Source: a virus (Duplodnaviria > Heunggongvirae > Uroviricota > Caudoviricetes). Taken from it: DNA of 64,000 bases. Shown here one piece after another: positions 1,431-61,304 of this stretch. The notes below the pieces were generated by a model. That model worked only from the letters and a program-made list of their open reading frames with translations, had not been told where the DNA came from and did not search any database. A program made the translations under genes and the position numbers. The DNA lies in IMG/VR virus record IMGVR_UViG_3300005535_000017, positions 146,331 to 210,330 of that record; one strand, 5' to 3'. The first letter of the stretch is position 1. Each line of letters opens with the position of its first letter.

Positions 1431-1439
1431 CTTATCTCC
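1431..1439 (-). promoter_or_regulatory. conserved promoter-like box cttatctcc (GGAGATAAG on gene strand)
   Basis: recurring motif upstream of gene starts. Confidence 0.5.
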
Positions 1440-1450
1440 GAAATAGCTAA

Positions 1451-1469
1451 GAAGAGGCCGAGCCTCTTC
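1451..1469 (-). terminator. hairpin terminator gaagagg-ccgagc-cctcttc with conserved TAGCTAA flank
   Basis: perfect 7-bp GC-rich stem after stop of 1478..1672. Confidence 0.55.
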
Positions 1470-1477
1470 TTGGTGCT

Positions 1478-1672
1478 TTAGATCTTCGAAAGCTCCTCGA
1501 CGAAGTCCTCGACCGCCTTGATGTAGCCTTGGCGATCGGGGTCTTCCGGCAGCGTGTTGCTTGCACGACGGAGCATACTGCCGGCGAGGAGCTGCATGGT
1601 CTGGCCGAGAGTCGGGTTGAGCTGGCGGAGCTTCTCACGAACTTCCTCGAGGCGCTGACTGTCCGTCTTCAT
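1478..1672 (-). CDS. hypothetical protein
   Basis: ORF 64 aa; SD AAGGAG upstream. Confidence 0.45.
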   Translation of the reverse strand: MKTDSQRLEEVREKLRQLNPTLGQTMQLLAGSMLRRASNTLPEDPDRQGYIKAVEDFVEELSKI

Positions 1673-1714
1673 CTGATTCTCCTTATAAAGACGATGTGTT
1701 TCCGTCTTACTTTC

Positions 1715-2134
1715 TTATCTCAGGATGGCGAGCCGAGTTACCGTCCCATTGGGCCATATGACGAACGGCTCCTTCGTCTTCTGGGCGTACTTGATCGTGT
1801 ACCAAGTGCCCCCGATCTCGAGAGGGCGGTCAGCGACGGAAGCACCCGTCAAGTACCAGGTCTCTTCGACGATGTCCCTGTTACGAGCGAAGTAGTTCTT
1901 GGGGATGCGAAGCTCATCGTAGCCTTTGCACCACGCTCGCTTGTCGGGTTTGATCGGGGGATGAATGACGATGCGCAGCTTCATGTCCAGAGCGATCTCG
2001 TGCGCTTCGGCGTCGGCCCCGATGCAGTCGCCGTGATGGAACTCAGCGGCATTGAGATCGTAGAGAAGTTGGCGGAGGGATATCTTCTGCTGCACCGTCA
2101 TTCCCTCACTCGTGCCGGTGAATCCGATCTTCAT
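1715..2134 (-). CDS. DprA/Smf-like Rossmann (SLOG-superfamily) protein
   Basis: MKIGFTGTSEGMT...HHGDCIGADAEAHEIAL resembles DprA GxTGTxxG...GxDxxAH signature; SD GGGAGTGGGTG. Confidence 0.45.
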   Translation of the reverse strand: MKIGFTGTSEGMTVQQKISLRQLLYDLNAAEFHHGDCIGADAEAHEIALDMKLRIVIHPPIKPDKRAWCKGYDELRIPKNYFARNRDIVEETWYLTGASVADRPLEIGGTWYTIKYAQKTKEPFVIWPNGTVTRLAILR

Positions 2135-58042: not shown

Positions 58043-58053
58043 GGCCTTCCGTA

Positions 58054-60849
58054 TTACGCTTGCGTCGGAGGCAGGGACTTGTTCTGGACCGTGCCGTTCG
58101 GAGAGACCAGATCGGCAGCCTTGCCGACCACGCCCTCGATGATGCCCTTGAGCGGGGTGTTGGCGAAGACCTTCTGGATGAACTCGACGCCGTTTTCCGC
58201 ACCGAACATCTGGTGGAAGGACATCGAGCGGGCGACCTGGATGAGCGTCTCCCGAGCGCCGGTGGAGCTGAGAGCTTCGATGAGACCCGGCTGGATGGCG
58301 CCGAGCTGCTTGACGATCGAGTCGACCTGAACGCCCAGGTAGTAGGCCTGGCGCTCGTAGGCCGCCTTCTCCTGCGCCCCGACCGCATCGTTGCTCTTCA
58401 TGGTGCGGGCGAGCTCGGAGGAGTGCTTCAAGTCCTCGAGAGCATTGAGGATGGCCTGAAGCTCTTGCTTCTCCTCGTTCTTCTCCTTCTCGGCGTCGAG
58501 CTTCTTGAGCTCGAGGGAGAGGAGATTGCCCACCTTGACTTGCTCGAGCTCCAGCTTGCGAGCCTCGGTCGCTGCCACCGCCTCCGCAGCCAGGCGGTCG
58601 ATCTCCTGACTACGCTTGGTGACCTCGAGCTCCTTCTCCTTCAGGCTGAGGGTGATGTTGTGCTGGACGATGCTGTGCTGCGAGTTGGCGAGGAGCCCGG
58701 CGATCGCCGGATTGGCGATCTGAACCAGGAGAACCTCCACATCCGTGACCCGCATGCCGTTCTCCGCGAAGAAGAGACCGGGGCGATGTGTCGTGTCACC
58801 CTCCTTCGCCGGCGCCGGCTTGACACCGAGGATGCGATCGCGGATGAAGGCGGTCGAGTTGCCGTAGAACTCCTCGACCGTCAGCTTCCGCACCTCGCCC
58901 TTGAGGATCGAGCGGATGTGGTCGCAGAAGTGCTTGACGTAGTTCTCGATCGTGAACCACTTCGATGCGTCGCCCTCGAAGTTGACGTTGTACGAGAGCT
59001 TCGCCGTCACCTTGACGTGGTCCTTGGTCTCCAGGTCATCGATGATGTCCGTGACCTTGTTGTTGTGCGTGTTGAGATAGACGGTCTCGTAGAGCTTGTC
59101 GGTGTTCTTCGGCTTGCCCGTCGAGAGCCGCAGGATGTCCAGCGTGTCACTGAACTCCATGAGGATCGTCTTCGGCCCGACCACGGCCTCGCGACGGCCG
59201 TCGGCCTTGATGACGTTGACCGCGTAGCCCGGCTGAACCTTGATCGTCGGAACGCCACGCTTCTGCGCCCCGAGGATAATGGTGCGGGGCTCGTGGTAGG
59301 TCGACTTGCGCTCGGCGACGTCGGCCACAACTGCCTGCTGGTCCTTGCCCTGCCGGCTCTCCGCCATCGAGCTGCTGCGGGCCCGAGCCGACTTCATGCC
59401 GCCTCGTTCGGCGGCGGCTCCGACGAAGGCCTCGGGGCTGGAGTTGGCGTAGTTCAGGAGGGCCATCGTCTCCGGGCCGATCCCGCGCTCGAGCTGCCCC
59501 TGAGAGACGACACCCTGCCGCGTGGTGGGAGCATTACCAGCCTCCGTACGCAGCTTGGCGTTCAGCTCGGCAGCCTCGCGGCCCGAGCCATCGGCGCCCG
59601 GGAACCAGGTTCGAGCTTCACGGTCCGAGAGAGGCCGAAGGACGATCGTCTCCTTCACCGGGTCGGGCAGCAGCATCTGCGGGCCCTTCTCCAGCTTGAC
59701 GTAGCCGGTGGCGCGCTCGAGCACATACTTGGCCTCGCCCTCGGTGACCGCCACGGCGTAGTGGATCGACTTGCCGTCGTACCGGACGAGCTGGTGGCCC
59801 TCCTCCGGGTAGTAGATCGGCATCTTGTCGCCCTTGATGAACTTCTCGTCACCAGCCTTGTACGCCTCCTTGCTGCCGTCGGCGTAGTGAAGCTCGCCAT
59901 CTTTGGCGAACTTGAGCTGGATGCCCTGGAGCGAGTTGATCTCGATCGCCTTGTACTTGCGAGCGGGGAGGCCGTCGTCATCCAGGATGGGGGTGCCGTC
60001 CGGCTTGCGCGCGATGAGGAACTCCTGCGTCGGGCGCGGGAACACCACCGCCGGACCACGAGGATACTCCTTGTTGCCGTCTTCATCGACCAGGATCGAG
60101 TACTCGTTGAGACCGAGCGTCTCGGCCTGGCGAACGAAGATGTCTTTGCCGTCGGGGCCCAGCCCTTCCGGCACGACCGAAACGCCGGTCGGCGGGATGT
60201 AGAAGGCGACCTTGGTGCCGAGGATGTTGTACTGCTTGCCCACGGCCAGATCGGCCGGCACGGCGTCGGTGATCGACGGAGTGGTGTCCTTCTTGGGCTC
60301 GGCCTTGGGAGTCTCGGTGGTCGCCGGCTTGCCATCGGCACCGGTCTGAGCGGTTGCGGTCTCGGCGGTCTTGATGACGGCCTTCGACCAGTTCTCGATG
60401 GCGCGACCTTCGTTGTAGATCTTGATGCGGAGGTATTCGTTCGAGCGGAGATGGTGACCGCGGCGAACCTCGCACATCTGGCCGGGGAAGAGGGCGAAGC
60501 TGACGGGCCCTGGGATGTTCTCCTTGAGGCCGATCGCCAGATCGGGAGTCGACTGGGTCTGGCCTTCACCGGGGTAAATCAGCTTGCCCGATGACTTGTC
60601 CTTGGCCGGATTGGTGAGAACGGCGTAGAAGCCTTCCGGCACCACCACATTCTGCGAGAGCGCGGCCTCGAGCGAAGCGCACTCGTCGAAGGTGAAGGTC
60701 TTGGTGTTGAACTTGACCGGACGATCCTGACCTGTCTGGTTGATGACGGTCGGACCCACGAAGAGCTTCACCACGCCCTTGGTGGAGTCGAGGATGTAGG
60801 CGTGCGTGCCGGGCGGGAGGGGCAGTTCACGTTTGCGTTCGTCGGCCAT
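58054..60849 (-). CDS. Major Vault Protein (MVP) homologue, 931 aa
   Basis: N-terminal MVP repeats (PGTHAYILDSTKGVVKLFVGP; VPEGFYAVLTNP; FALFPGQMCE); shoulder VVGPKTILMEFSDTLDILRLSTGKPK...LSYNVNFE...FTIENYVKHFCDHIRSILKGEVRKLTVEEFYGNSTAFIRDRILG; then cap-helix coiled coil. Confidence 0.85.
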   Translation of the reverse strand: MADERKRELPLPPGTHAYILDSTKGVVKLFVGPTVINQTGQDRPVKFNTKTFTFDECASLEAALSQNVVVPEGFYAVLTNPAKDKSSGKLIYPGEGQTQSTPDLAIGLKENIPGPVSFALFPGQMCEVRRGHHLRSNEYLRIKIYNEGRAIENWSKAVIKTAETATAQTGADGKPATTETPKAEPKKDTTPSITDAVPADLAVGKQYNILGTKVAFYIPPTGVSVVPEGLGPDGKDIFVRQAETLGLNEYSILVDEDGNKEYPRGPAVVFPRPTQEFLIARKPDGTPILDDDGLPARKYKAIEINSLQGIQLKFAKDGELHYADGSKEAYKAGDEKFIKGDKMPIYYPEEGHQLVRYDGKSIHYAVAVTEGEAKYVLERATGYVKLEKGPQMLLPDPVKETIVLRPLSDREARTWFPGADGSGREAAELNAKLRTEAGNAPTTRQGVVSQGQLERGIGPETMALLNYANSSPEAFVGAAAERGGMKSARARSSSMAESRQGKDQQAVVADVAERKSTYHEPRTIILGAQKRGVPTIKVQPGYAVNVIKADGRREAVVGPKTILMEFSDTLDILRLSTGKPKNTDKLYETVYLNTHNNKVTDIIDDLETKDHVKVTAKLSYNVNFEGDASKWFTIENYVKHFCDHIRSILKGEVRKLTVEEFYGNSTAFIRDRILGVKPAPAKEGDTTHRPGLFFAENGMRVTDVEVLLVQIANPAIAGLLANSQHSIVQHNITLSLKEKELEVTKRSQEIDRLAAEAVAATEARKLELEQVKVGNLLSLELKKLDAEKEKNEEKQELQAILNALEDLKHSSELARTMKSNDAVGAQEKAAYERQAYYLGVQVDSIVKQLGAIQPGLIEALSSTGARETLIQVARSMSFHQMFGAENGVEFIQKVFANTPLKGIIEGVVGKAADLVSPNGTVQNKSLPPTQA

Positions 60850-60852
60850 GGC

Positions 60853-61290
60853 TCAGATCTCCTTTGACTGCTGCGTGGTACTGCGGGGAAACGTATCGAT
60901 GACGCCGTCGAGAATCAGGCTGGGCTTCTCGAAGCGCTCGATGACACTCGGCATCAGTGCGGACAGTCCGGGCCCGCCGAACATGTCATTCGAGTGAGAA
61001 GGCTTGCCCTTCTTCTCTCTGTCGACGGACAGAGTGATGTGGGGGAACCAGTTGTCGGACATGACGCCGTGAACCAAGACGGCATCCACTCTCTGGTCCC
61101 AGCCGTAGCCAATGACCTTCAATTTCACCTTCTGACCGATTGCAAGGTTCTCGACCTCGAACCGAGAAGGCATGAACTTGATGGTCATGTGGTCGGCGTG
61201 AATCTCCTTGTGCTTGGGAGGATACGTGGAGAGCAGGAGCTCTCTCGACTCTGGAGTCAAGAAGACCCCAATATATGTAGTGTCCGGCAT
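60853..61290 (-). CDS. 2H phosphoesterase (LigT/CPDase-like)
   Basis: two H-x-T-x motifs (ADHMTIKF, PHITLSVD); 3 nt upstream of MVP. Confidence 0.6.
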   Translation of the reverse strand: MPDTTYIGVFLTPESRELLLSTYPPKHKEIHADHMTIKFMPSRFEVENLAIGQKVKLKVIGYGWDQRVDAVLVHGVMSDNWFPHITLSVDREKKGKPSHSNDMFGGPGLSALMPSVIERFEKPSLILDGVIDTFPRSTTQQSKEI

Positions 61291-61295
61291 CTTTC

Positions 61296-61304
61296 CTTAT
61301 CTCT
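61296..61304 (-). promoter_or_regulatory. promoter-like box cttatctct for the 2H-MVP unit
   Basis: GAGATAAGGAAAG directly before ATG. Confidence 0.5.

Follow-up and report, generated by a model that had tools for sequence, protein, structure and literature searches.

A recurring promoter-like box and tailed hairpins set apart most small genes of an uncultured huge phage

Most small genes of the uncultured huge phage of soil origin studied here are set apart by a tailed hairpin, then a short box, which raises the question of what the two elements do and what reads the box. The window, the 64,000-nucleotide stretch of its DNA that was analysed, has 58% GC and 43 tRNA genes, and carries rIIA/rIIB, a PARP-like gene and a major-vault-protein-like gene; the remainder of the phage has a lytic, T4-like look.

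The core of the box, GNGATAAG, occurs 26 times in the window against 4.8 expected, a number reached by none of 100 shuffles, and GGAGATAAGAG at up to one mismatch has 11 matches where 1.2 would be expected; the exact 11-mer has only 3 copies. At least 20 intergenic sites sharing the box, on both strands, had been proposed from a sequence-only reading. Indeed, 23 of the 26 core sites are intergenic, where only 16.9% of the window is (odds ratio 38, p = 3e-15), so the motif is not found inside ORFs as often as between them. Two of the three 'coding' matches (1714 and 9710) are gene ends, at which the TAA of the box is the stop codon. The next co-oriented gene is faced by 21 of the 23 intergenic sites (p = 7e-5), and a 22nd gene-facing site, at 27, has its target just beyond the window edge, visible in the related phage L015. 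The consensus is tC(G/A)G(A/G)GATAAGA(A/G), with G-N-GATAAG as its invariant part; the variants noted earlier (GGGG, AGAG, GGCG, TGAG and TGTG before ATAAG) are present, and TATAAG, GACAAG and TACAAG were found in addition. The sites are:

25-35, minus strand: box GGGGATAAGTA; downstream gene seen in L015
506-516, minus: box AGAGATAAGAG, then a 5′ hairpin
1429-1439, minus: box GGAGATAAGAA, 5 nt past a terminator tail
1712-1722, minus: box TGAGATAAGAA; TAA serves as stop codon for gene 1715-2134
3093-3103, minus: box GGAGATAAGAG; terminator tail 4 nt before, AGGAGG 7 nt after
4177-4187, minus: box GGGGATAAGAA
4784-4794, minus: box TGAGATAAGAG
5505-5515, minus: box GGAGATAAGAG, upstream of re-called gene 5120-5491
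6487-6497, minus: box GGAGATAAGCT, then a hairpin containing the SD
7559-7569, minus: box GGAGATAAGAA; GGAGGTGA 5 nt further on
8436-8446, minus: box GGGGATAAGAG
8846-8856, minus: box variant GGGTATAAGAA
9708-9718, minus: box AGAGATAAGAG; TAA serves as stop codon for gene 9711-10217; box borders, on the 5′ side, a module swapped in strain L015
10986-10996, minus: box TGGGATAAGAG
13171-13181, plus: box GGGGATAAGAG, where a 3-gene indel against L013 has its right edge
14140-14150, minus: box GGAGATAAGAG in a divergent gap; kept in L013 and in a paralog
14179-14189, plus: box variant TGGTACAAGAA, divergent partner of 14140-14150
15224-15234, plus: box GGAGATAAGAA
16993-17003, minus: box GGAGATAAGGA in a divergent gap
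17028-17038, plus: box TGTGATAAGAG, divergent partner of 16993-17003
23827-23837, minus: box GGCGATAAGTC
26860-26870, minus: box GGCGATAAGAA; kept in L014, spacer not
26890-26900, plus: box variant TGAGACAAGAA, divergent partner of 26860-26870; kept in L014
30728-30738, minus: box AGAGATAAGAA in a divergent gap
30762-30772, plus: box AGGGATAAGAG, divergent partner of 30728-30738
32939-32949, minus: box variant CGATATAAGAA
36236-36246, minus: box variant TGTTATAAGTC, then a hairpin
40958-40968, plus: box AGAGATAAGGA, upstream of gene 41013-41981, within the tRNA region
57984-57994, minus: box variant CGGTATAAGTC, past the terminator of the vault-protein-like gene; GGAGATAAGA at the same L009 site
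61294-61304, minus: box AGAGATAAGGA; ATG 5 nt on, leaderless-like; kept in L007 and L009

Distances of 7-12 nt from the box to the SD and about 20-30 nt to the start codon had been claimed, and hold only in part: about half of the sites have the layout of box, 5-8 nt and SD, but the others have a longer leader, with the start codon 5-107 nt from the box overall and, at one further site, 288 nt away. At several of the longer-leader sites a hairpin lies immediately 3′ of the box. Independent gene calls agree with the starts at 14120 and 16975 that had been assigned with the help of the box, which also backs the replacement of a spurious plus-strand ORF (4844-5524) with two minus-strand genes.

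About 19 GC-rich hairpins in the window end in YTTYTTAGCY; TYTTAGCY has 20 copies against 3.5 expected, and AGCTAAGAARAGG, at up to one mismatch, 13 against 0.14. The near-invariant hairpin flank reported earlier is thus a real motif, but its strand had been misread: along the transcribed strand it forms the 3′ side, CCTCTTCTTAGCT, in which CCTCTT pairs with AAGAGG to form the lower stem and TTAGCT is the 3′ tail, the supposed 5′ flank being the reverse complement of this arm and tail. The TAG and TAA of the flank are incidental at most sites, because the true stop codons precede the hairpin, most hairpins ending 21-38 nt past a stop codon on the same strand. Folding at -14 kcal/mol or below was seen for 20 of 26 intergenic tail matches (some overlapping), against 13% of control intergenic 44-mers, and clade-wide there are 35 distinct hairpins whose stems differ in sequence but share the tail. 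With the 3′ arm running into the tail just past stop codons, the hairpins would be intrinsic-type terminators that block read-through into the following unit, and those palindromic at the base may serve two convergent genes at once, terminating transcription from either side. The tail mixes U and C and has no clean U-run, which makes efficient intrinsic termination less than certain. Termination does not account for the conserved AGCT that closes the tail. The hairpins, as predicted terminators unless described otherwise, are:

56-93, minus strand: hairpin, tail CTCTTTAGCC, -19.7 kcal/mol
1445-1471, minus: AAGAAGAGGCtcgGCCTCTTCTTAGCT
3108-3135, minus: hairpin, tail TTAGCT
4214-4239, minus: hairpin, tail TCTTAGCT
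4799-4825 (low coordinate approximate), minus: AAGAGGCCtcgtGCCTCTT, variant tail TTTAGTT
7587-7616, minus: hairpin, tail TTTAGCC
8463-8508, minus: hairpin, tail TCTTAGCT
13450-13477, minus: bidirectional, between convergent genes
16289-16314, plus: AGCT common to the opposite-strand terminator
16311-16339, minus: convergent partner of 16289-16314
19178-19201, plus: hairpin, tail TTAGCT, about 200 nt past the preceding plus-strand gene; role less certain
21709-21741, no strand assigned: palindromic, bidirectional, TTAGC tail on either strand
23862-23889, minus: hairpin, tail TTTAGCT
30101-30136, minus: hairpin, tail TTTTCTTAGCT
31620-31659, minus: hairpin, tail TTTTTCTTAGCT
36151-36177, minus: hairpin, tail TTTTAGCC
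41995-42023, plus: after gene 41013-41981, tRNA-Ala gene 5 nt on
47801-47833, minus: hairpin, tail TTCTTAGCT
58011-58050, minus: vault-protein-like gene, tail TTTTCTTAGCT, -27 kcal/mol; kept in L007 and L009

Terminator and box do stand together, at nine places, as had been noted; the spacing from tail to box, however, varies from 4 to 26 nt, so they are two elements and not a single fused unit. Four short divergent gaps (14140/14179, 16993/17028, 26860/26890 and 30728/30762), each of which must hold two promoters, have the box or a close variant on each strand, back to back and 19-28 bp apart. In a fifth, of 36 nt (61291-61326), the box alone is available to the minus-strand gene. A 15-mer, ATCCCAAGAAAAAAT, is conserved between two divergent boxes.

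The two motifs are shared by nine or more related metagenomic phage contigs with 57-62% GC, where they stand at orthologous positions and at others; box and tail are present in L004, L007-L009 and L012-L015, and in the metagenome contigs L020 and L024-L026. Alignments of orthologous gaps show the boxes kept and the spacer between them not. Upstream of the gene preceding the vault-protein-like gene, the box, 5-6 nt and the ATG are kept in three phages, and past the terminator of the vault-protein-like gene GGTATAAG of the window corresponds to GGAGATAAG in L009. More distant relatives have neither box nor tail motif; one of them lacking the box, L011, has canonical TTGACA-N17-TAnAnT promoters (TTGACA-N17-TAGACT and TTGACA-N17-TAAATT) placed after T-run terminators. 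Position, orientation, conservation, the divergent gaps and the location past terminators together give the promoter role of the box good, if indirect, support.

The box had also been described as unlike sigma70 elements. This is only half true: (G/T)ATAAG shares 4-5 of 6 positions with TATAAT, the A at position 2 among them, and stands at a -10-like place; what it lacks is the final T and any -35. Primary sigma factors need the T at the last position of the hexamer; in sigma70-family structures two bases are flipped into conserved pockets of the primary sigma, and this T, at -7, is among them. The box hexamer closes with G, without exception, both at the 26 GNGATAAG sites and in the TATAAG variants. 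We could not detect a fixed-spacing upstream motif by position counts (24 sites) or Gibbs sampling (39 sites), and TTGAC was upstream of the box at 0 of 71 sites; roughly one site in four has an AAATTC-like element 9-15 nt upstream, so a strictly single-element promoter is not certain. Matches to sigma70-type consensuses in 1-60 kb were not enriched (3, 1 and 1 against 4.6, 4.2 and 3.3 expected). Separate TTGACG-N17-TAGACC and TTGACA-N17-TAGCTT sites adjoin tRNA arrays in the window, and TAGAAT lies 6 nt ahead of the ATG of the ligase gene; the box thus appears to be a distinct class coexisting with canonical-type signals. A search of 185,579 species-representative genomes gave one chance match to its pattern and no other. 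The ~108 window proteins and the precomputed Pfam matches for flanking and related loci that carry the motifs showed no sigma or RNAP domain, and the window, its ~16 kb flanks and the loci of motif-bearing relatives yielded neither a sigma or RNAP nor a known sigma-appropriation factor, in a search that spans a minor part of the genome and falls at least 59 kb short of the source contig. The likeness to TATAAT, the want of a phage sigma in what was searched and the use of host sigma70 by equivalent cassettes of T4-type phages (PMC2839356) would suit an ordinary early promoter of the -10-only or extended -10 type, its odd last base being a peculiarity of the host. The constant G, the absence of TTGAC, the separate canonical class and the absence of the pattern from the genomes all speak against this, and unmodified host primary sigma, as the sigma70 holoenzyme, is an unlikely reader. 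From the invariant G and the lack of a fixed -35 we infer that the box is read via a phage-encoded or phage-modified specificity factor; recognition by a phage RNAP or sigma factor, as had been proposed, is plausible.

The box might instead be an operator, an asymmetric, stoperator-like site for a phage DNA-binding regulator, the true promoters being weak and unrecognised. A short asymmetric motif present in many copies, in short intergenic gaps and oriented with transcription, fits this, and the conserved 15-mer implies that other protein-binding sites exist; for the boxes between tightly packed co-directional genes without a terminator (13171, 15224, 9708 and 1712), an operator or an RNA element fits equally. 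Those gaps, however, yielded no alternative promoter motif, and the 36-nt gap has no space for a second minus-strand element; the box is at a -10-like distance from the SD or ATG, the TATAAG variants shift toward the -10 consensus and not away from it, and the phage otherwise appears lytic and T4-like, which makes an operator improbable. If the motifs acted in RNA, a host or phage endoribonuclease would cut long polycistronic transcripts at or near UUAGCU or the box, the hairpin would guard the 3′ end so formed, and the box would serve translation or stability as a 5′-UTR element, for which start-associated sequences (SAS) are a precedent (PMC3203893). Intrinsic termination by itself does not account for the conserved, unpaired UUAGCU tail, and every box lies on the sense strand, near the ribosome-binding site. 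Yet boxes in divergent gaps precede the first gene of each unit, where nothing would transcribe them, and the nine boxes 4-26 nt past a terminator tail would rarely be transcribed; the distance to the start is unlike that of SAS, and pairing with the 16S rRNA tail is limited to GGAG at some sites, a variable part of the box. We give action in RNA little credence. That the cassettes are mainly recombination or mobility repeats shuffling gene modules, with a minor regulatory role, seems very improbable. Of four indels between close relatives, two do have one edge at or close to a box (11795-13170 is absent from L013, its right edge being the box at 13171, and the box and gene at 9474-9737 are replaced by a box and two genes in L015), but the other two do not; hairpin sequences vary from copy to copy and so are not copies of one repeat, the conserved parts (8-11 nt) are too short for homologous recombination, and strict gene-facing orientation is unexpected of a mobile repeat.

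On balance we favour a single-element promoter, read via a phage-encoded or phage-modified specificity factor and combined with intrinsic terminators in a PeSL-like arrangement. Non-structural genes would be grouped into short, insulated transcription units, with tC(G/A)G(A/G)-(G/T)ATAAG-A as the promoter core and probably the sole sequence-specific element. Acting like a -10 element, the box would place the transcript start about 5-8 nt downstream, giving a very short leader with the SD at its 5′ end at some sites, a leaderless mRNA at 61296, and elsewhere a leader that a hairpin at its start would stabilise. The factor would probably direct host core RNAP, a phage RNAP being less likely.

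The cassettes are a variant of a known phage design with an unusual box, and not a new kind of element. PeSL cassettes have been described in T4-type phages, where they use host sigma70 (PMC2839356); terminator and box may be their functional equivalent, within a region of fast gene turnover. In cluster K mycobacteriophages the SAS, which likewise are conserved ahead of start codons (PMC3203893), lie 3-7 bp from the start and include the SD, whereas the box lies 5-107 nt away. Stoperators of cluster A mycobacteriophages are the model for an operator role. The promoters of phiEco32 gp36 consist of a single element, tAATGTAtA, with the start 6-8 bp downstream, and have no -35 because gp36 is a sigma without region 4 (PMC8948821). 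The same mode of recognition, by host core RNAP with a phage factor, is proposed for the box, and T4 gp55 is likewise a precedent for a phage-encoded specificity factor on host core RNAP.

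We found that the window is repeatedly marked by a short box lying between genes, as the sequence-only reading had claimed. Indeed, GGAGATAAGAG occurs 11 times with at most one mismatch, where 1.2 occurrences are expected, and its core GNGATAAG occurs 26 times against 4.8 expected, a count reached by none of 100 shuffles. The intergenic placement also held: 23 of the 26 core sites fall within the intergenic 16.9% of the window (odds ratio 38, p = 3e-15), 21 of these 23 face the next co-oriented gene, and a 22nd faces a gene just past the window edge. Two of the three "coding" sites coincide with the last bases of a gene, the box supplying its TAA stop codon. 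At the tightly packed junctions with stop codons 1715-1717 and 9711-9713 this stop is the TAA within the box GATAAG, and the box is therefore kept even without intergenic space. The aligned sites give the consensus tC(G/A)G(A/G)GATAAGA(A/G), with information limited to about 11 positions, and the variants TATAAG, GACAAG and TACAAG are found in equivalent positions. To judge from its bases, the (G/T)ATAAG hexamer is -10-like. The box had been placed 7-12 nt upstream of a strong Shine-Dalgarno sequence (SD) and about 20-30 nt upstream of the start; at about half of the sites an SD (at 61296, the ATG) does follow the hexamer by 5-8 nt, but the distance from box to start ranges from 5 to 107 nt. 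Several other boxes have a hairpin within a few nucleotides downstream, an arrangement that fits a 5'-terminal stabiliser. Downstream of the box are small genes of early type and operons for nucleotide metabolism rather than late structural genes.

The GC-rich hairpins said to carry a nearly invariant 5' flank are real (AGCTAAGAARAGG is present 13 times against 0.14 expected, and TYTTAGCY 20 times in the window against 3.5), but they had been described on the wrong strand. On the transcribed strand they run from AAGAGG through a GC-rich stem and loop to CCTCTTCTTAGCT, so that the "flank" is the hairpin's lower 3' arm together with its 3' tail. In most cases the hairpin's end is 21-38 nt beyond the stop codon of a co-oriented gene; where genes converge, the element either has a palindromic base or is present twice, back to back (13450, 16289/16311, 21709). 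Free energies of the tailed hairpins range from -12.7 to -27 kcal/mol, with one exception at 8463-8508 (-11.4 kcal/mol), and 20 of the 26 intergenic tail matches, some of them overlapping, fold at -14 kcal/mol or below, against 13% of control intergenic 44-mers. Only some tailed hairpins (13454, 4825, 31651 and 30129) were caught by a scan for U-runs (at least five T in eight), the remainder having a mixed CTCTTCTTAGCT tract that lies partly within the stem. Across the clade, 35 distinct hairpins differ in their stems and loops but agree in being rich in purines on the 5' arm and in pyrimidines on the 3' arm, and in having the tail TTAGC(T/C). RNAalifold predicted 0 pairs on the MAFFT-aligned hairpins, whose stem and loop lengths vary and whose 5' arms are out of register; the evidence for terminators comes from each hairpin folded separately, not from covariation.

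These elements are like intrinsic terminators in having a GC-rich hairpin right after the stop codon and then a pyrimidine/U-rich tract, with an A/G-rich 5' arm that pairs with the tract and thereby makes the element bidirectional between convergent genes. They differ in that the tract is a U/C mix, UCUUCUU, ending in an unpaired and clade-conserved UAGCU; to our knowledge, ordinary intrinsic terminators lack such a sequence-specific tail. The tail is only partly U-rich and its terminal unpaired AGCT is conserved across the clade; this AGCT may signal pausing, release or processing in a sequence-specific way. The gap 11713-11901 has terminators of another kind than the tailed hairpins of other sites, namely two conventional T-run ones built on the direct repeat GTGAACCTAG(A/T)CCAGTG.

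Hairpin and box had further been described as often fused into one unit. Nine hairpins are indeed followed by a box, all nine in the small-gene region at 1-31 kb, but the spacing from tail to box is variable (4-26 nt), and the two are therefore separable elements. The same variation led us to reject the tail sequence TTAGCT as the -35 of a box promoter. Each element is also present in the tRNA array:

41995-42023, tailed terminator 5 nt ahead of a tRNA-Ala gene
40958, box

Four short divergent gaps carry the box or a close variant on each strand, 19-28 bp apart; since a divergent gap holds two promoters by necessity, a box on both strands supports its being a promoter. In the 36-nt gap 61291-61326 the box is the sole promoter candidate for the minus-strand gene. 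Where a box lies 4-5 nt past a terminator tail, transcripts would rarely extend into it, and a role at the RNA level is hard to reconcile with those sites. The -10-like hexamer, its spacing to the SD and the number of sigma70-type matches, at or below chance over 1-60 kb, also speak for a promoter. We thus consider it likely that the box is the core promoter element, and the pairing of promoter with terminator is the best-supported reading of the cassettes. A conserved 15-nt sequence, ATCCCAAGAAAAA(A)T, lies between back-to-back boxes at 14151-14178 and 17004-17027 of the window and at about 370-400 of L013, a related phage locus. It is upstream of the paralogs 13482-14120 and 16346-16975 and of their L013 ortholog, and probably serves to bind a regulator dedicated to this paralog family.

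The window has a GC content of 58% throughout and about 120 genes, mostly small, as called by a heuristic based on codon usage and SD. Its sequence is also found on metagenomic contigs, including one JGI record, with lengths up to 139 kb and some in the 0.2-1 Mb class; because the same sequence is on such long contigs, the window is part of an uncultured huge phage. No close relative at the DNA level was found among GenBank phages. The 43 tRNA genes serve almost all amino acids and are packed into an array of less than 10 kb (38217-47560), with HNH endonuclease genes and small ORFs interspersed, and Rfam detected only tRNAs in the window. Recognisable genes include rIIA, rIIB, thyX, a WGR-PARP gene, a SpoU methylase gene, a fusion of LigD phosphoesterase and ATP-ligase, an adenylosuccinate-synthetase-like gene and a gene for a 931-aa major-vault-protein-like protein (58054-60849, minus strand; Pfam MVP_shoulder, E = 1e-23). 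The last is 35-36% identical to genes of the uncultured phages LR756500 and LR756501 (462 kb and 735 kb) and has more than 2,400 homologs, many on long phage-like contigs; few homologs carry an organism name, and some of these are from Myxococcota MAGs. Eukaryotic vaults pair the major vault protein (MVP) with a PARP. In the window a protein with WGR, PARP_reg and PARP domains is encoded at 49789-51213 on the same strand, 7 kb from the vault-protein-like gene, and among the homologs of the vault-protein-like protein, P0037 carries a fused WGR domain; our literature search found no paper on phage MVP and PARP together. The DNA ligase (61327-62760, plus strand) has an N-terminal LigD 3'-phosphoesterase domain. 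The adenylosuccinate-synthetase-like gene (62757-64000) is cut by the window end, its full form being 6726-8093 of the related locus L004. Its PHROGs name was read as PurZ-type, and PurZ would imply 2-aminoadenine DNA; the best solved-structure matches, over the full length, are cellular PurA enzymes, and a PurZ/2-aminoadenine genome as the cause of the odd promoter was left out of the argument.

To follow both motifs through relatives, we compared the surroundings of vault-protein-like homologs, which form a graded series of identity, the neighbourhoods of a 212-aa paralog family encoded among the small genes, and the flank to the left of the window. Every relative with vault-protein-like identity down to about 68% (L007-L009) has box and tail, as does the L012-L014 group; both are missing from L010 (61%), L011 (54%) and L003 (35%), the last being the single relative to which the vault-protein-like gene led in IMG/VR. 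When metagenomes at large were scanned for the fused cassette, the matches were the same phage, four relatives of 60-62% GC (L020 and L024-L026) and three low-GC chance matches. The same scan of IMG/VR gave only two matches, both judged to be chance, and that of 185,579 GTDB species genomes gave one chance match, a Phycisphaerae MAG without the hairpin, and thus no clue to the host.

At orthologous sites, sequence comparison indicates that the box is kept while its surroundings drift. Ahead of the gene preceding the vault-protein-like gene, G(A/G)GATAAG followed by 5-6 nt and ATG is retained in three phages; after the vault-protein-like terminator the window and L007 have GGTATAAG, versus GGAGATAAG in L009. 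The divergent gap 26842-26927 has both boxes and the SD identical to those of L014, with the 20-nt spacer between the boxes almost wholly different. Similarly, the paralogous gaps 14121-14203 and 16976-17072 and the L013 ortholog have the boxes and the central 15-mer in common; the paralogous proteins (13482-14120 and 16346-16975) are only 39% identical. L011, which lacks the box, has T-run terminators directly followed by TTGACA-N17-TAGACT or TAAATT (9190-9225, 14150-14195 and 16915-16960). By their sequence these are true promoter-early stem-loop (PeSL)-like, canonical sigma70 promoter-terminator units, and their contrast with the box of the relatives indicates that promoter type differs between sister lineages.

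Gene order relative to L012-L014 is a mosaic of synteny. The window and the near-identical L015 and L016 (96-99.7% DNA identity) are distinguished, inside 2 kb, by a replaced module and two insertions of small genes, which indicates very fast gene turnover in the region. The strain differences lie at:

9474-9737, where L015 has "box + two genes" in place of "box + one gene"
about 9151
about 10650-10930

L013 is without three window genes, and the right edge of this indel is at or near the box at 13171; its left edge is the gap 11713-11901. Overall, two of four indels between close relatives have a box at or near one edge, with junctions not exactly at the motif, and no box borders the two other strain-level insertions. 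The evidence for shuffling mediated by the cassettes is thus thin.

Which factor would read the box was considered first with respect to the host primary sigma. The box does not have the full set of features of a primary sigma70 promoter (A2 and T6 of the hexamer, and a TTGACA-like element 16-18 bp upstream). Position 6 of the hexamer is G at all 26 GNGATAAG sites, and no -35 at a fixed distance was found by position counts or by Gibbs sampling (39 sites), the sampler yielding nothing beyond the pyrimidine-rich tails of terminators and, in reverse complement, the partner box of divergent pairs. TTGAC is upstream of the box at 0 of 71 sites, and an AAATTC-like element 9-15 nt upstream is found at only about a quarter of box sites. 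Across 1-60 kb, matches to sigma70-type consensus numbered 3, 1 and 1 against 4.6, 4.2 and 3.3 expected, the best reaching at most 9/12. Canonical-type signals do exist separately in the window, namely TTGACG-N17-TAGACC at 37856, upstream of the tRNA array, and TTGACA-N17-TAGCTT at 46646 (46646-46674), ahead of the last tRNA group. Given the invariant final G, the missing -35 and these separate signals, the box is probably not read by the host primary sigma. Host-type promoters seem to be confined to the tRNA arrays. In addition, the ligase ATG is preceded at 6 nt by TAGAAT (TAAGAT in L009), an arrangement typical of a leaderless mRNA under a canonical -10. The 1.3 kb ahead of the tRNA array (36900-38216) has no convincing ORF and contains an 18-bp hairpin with a T-run at 37776-37815; Rfam found nothing there. 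A sigma28 promoter was rejected as well. The FliA/sigma28 consensus is TAAA-N15-GCCGATAA; the box has only GATAA in common with it, the preceding base being A or G, not C, at 21 of 24 sites, and TAAA is absent, its expected position being merely A-rich (A at 14 and 11 of 24 sites).

A single element without a -35 is the usage of phage sigmas that lack region 4, and the box thus fits recognition by a phage factor. For example, phiEco32 gp36 is a sigma without region 4 whose promoters have one conserved element, tAATGTAtA, and no -35 (PMC8948821), and some huge phages are reported to have their own sigma70 or AsiA-like proteins (PMC7162821). The search for a gene encoding such a factor came up empty: no sigma or RNAP domain was among the matches listed for about 108 window proteins in Pfam, PHROGs and NCBIfam (three batch scans covered 98 window proteins), none was seen in the motif-bearing flanks examined, and PHROGs gave none for the genes downstream of the sigma70-like site 36982. 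Phage sigma factors are often too divergent for profiles of this type. We regard the proposal that a phage-specific factor reads the box as plausible, if only slightly favoured. Possible, and put forward tentatively, is a broader reading in which the clade has a code of its own, with a -10-like element ending in G read by a phage sigma or RNAP and a matching sequence-specific 3'-end signal. In such a code the promoter would be the single (G/T)ATAAG element, read by a factor with a changed specificity pocket; the hairpin plus UCUUAGCU would act as a termination or 3'-end signal; and host-type sigma70 promoters would be retained only for a few units, such as tRNA arrays. If so, the L011-type lineages with TTGACA/TAnAnT would mark a recent switch in promoter specificity, traceable by comparative genomics.

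The original observation is thus upheld, with its strand and spacing corrected. Metagenomic huge phages are uncultured and known almost only as gene lists, and the scheduling of their expression is a gap. A clade-wide signature of box and terminator is a tool for fixing gene starts and operon boundaries, and lets genes be grouped by expression class when RNA data are lacking. It also gives a specific thing to look for, namely whatever factor recognises a -10-like element with G as its last base, and the contrast with the canonical-sigma70 sister lineage makes the change in promoter specificity traceable. Its main use is as a handle for annotating and classifying uncultured huge phages and as a pointer to the specificity factor.

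Among known systems, T4 gp55 late promoters have TATAAATA. Like these and the gp36 promoters of phiEco32, the box is one phage-lineage-specific element of 8-11 bp at the -10 position without a -35, and its layout is compatible with the start site expected a few bp downstream (6-8 bp for gp36). Unlike them, it has a different sequence and precedes early-type rather than late structural genes, and no sigma gene was found among the window proteins and flanks examined here. Promoters of jumbo-phage multisubunit RNAPs (AR9 early AAATATATATTAT-(6N)-G, AR9 late AACA-(6N)-TA/G, phiKZ late TATG; PMC5312081) are likewise phage-specific non-sigma70 motifs, repeated over a giant genome and first spotted by over-representation; the box, however, does not resemble them in sequence and looks like a sigma-type -10, and no RNAP subunit genes were seen in the DNA examined here. 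The start-associated sequences (SAS) of cluster K mycobacteriophages, GGGATAGGAGCCC (PMC3203893), are similarly asymmetric (about 11-13 bp), gene-oriented, found ahead of many non-structural genes, kept throughout a phage cluster whatever the gene family and absent from host genomes. SAS, however, incorporate the SD and are 3-7 bp away from the start codon, whereas the box stands apart from the SD, has 5-107 nt between itself and the start, and is placed after terminators.

In function, the window cassettes come nearest to the PeSLs of T4-type phages, which pair a stem-loop terminator with an early promoter (Arbiol et al. 2010, PMC2839356; Comeau et al. 2014, PMC4122927). Both are small composite units of terminator and promoter that separate small, functionally uncharacterised genes in rapidly changing parts of a large phage with rIIA/rIIB, in the order stop codon, stem-loop, promoter, SD, start codon, and some gene-module differences among close relatives end at or near a cassette. 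PeSLs, however, carry the E. coli sigma70 consensus (-35, -10 and AT-rich upstream sequence), the feature that defines them, whereas the box lacks a -35 and its hexamer has G as the last base; their stem-loop overlaps or lies inside the promoter, whereas here it is upstream at a variable distance and has a conserved tail; and mini-circles and recombination are known on the PeSL side, against thin evidence for shuffling here. A terminator and promoter between small genes being already known from T4-type phages, the present finding adds no new principle and extends a known one.
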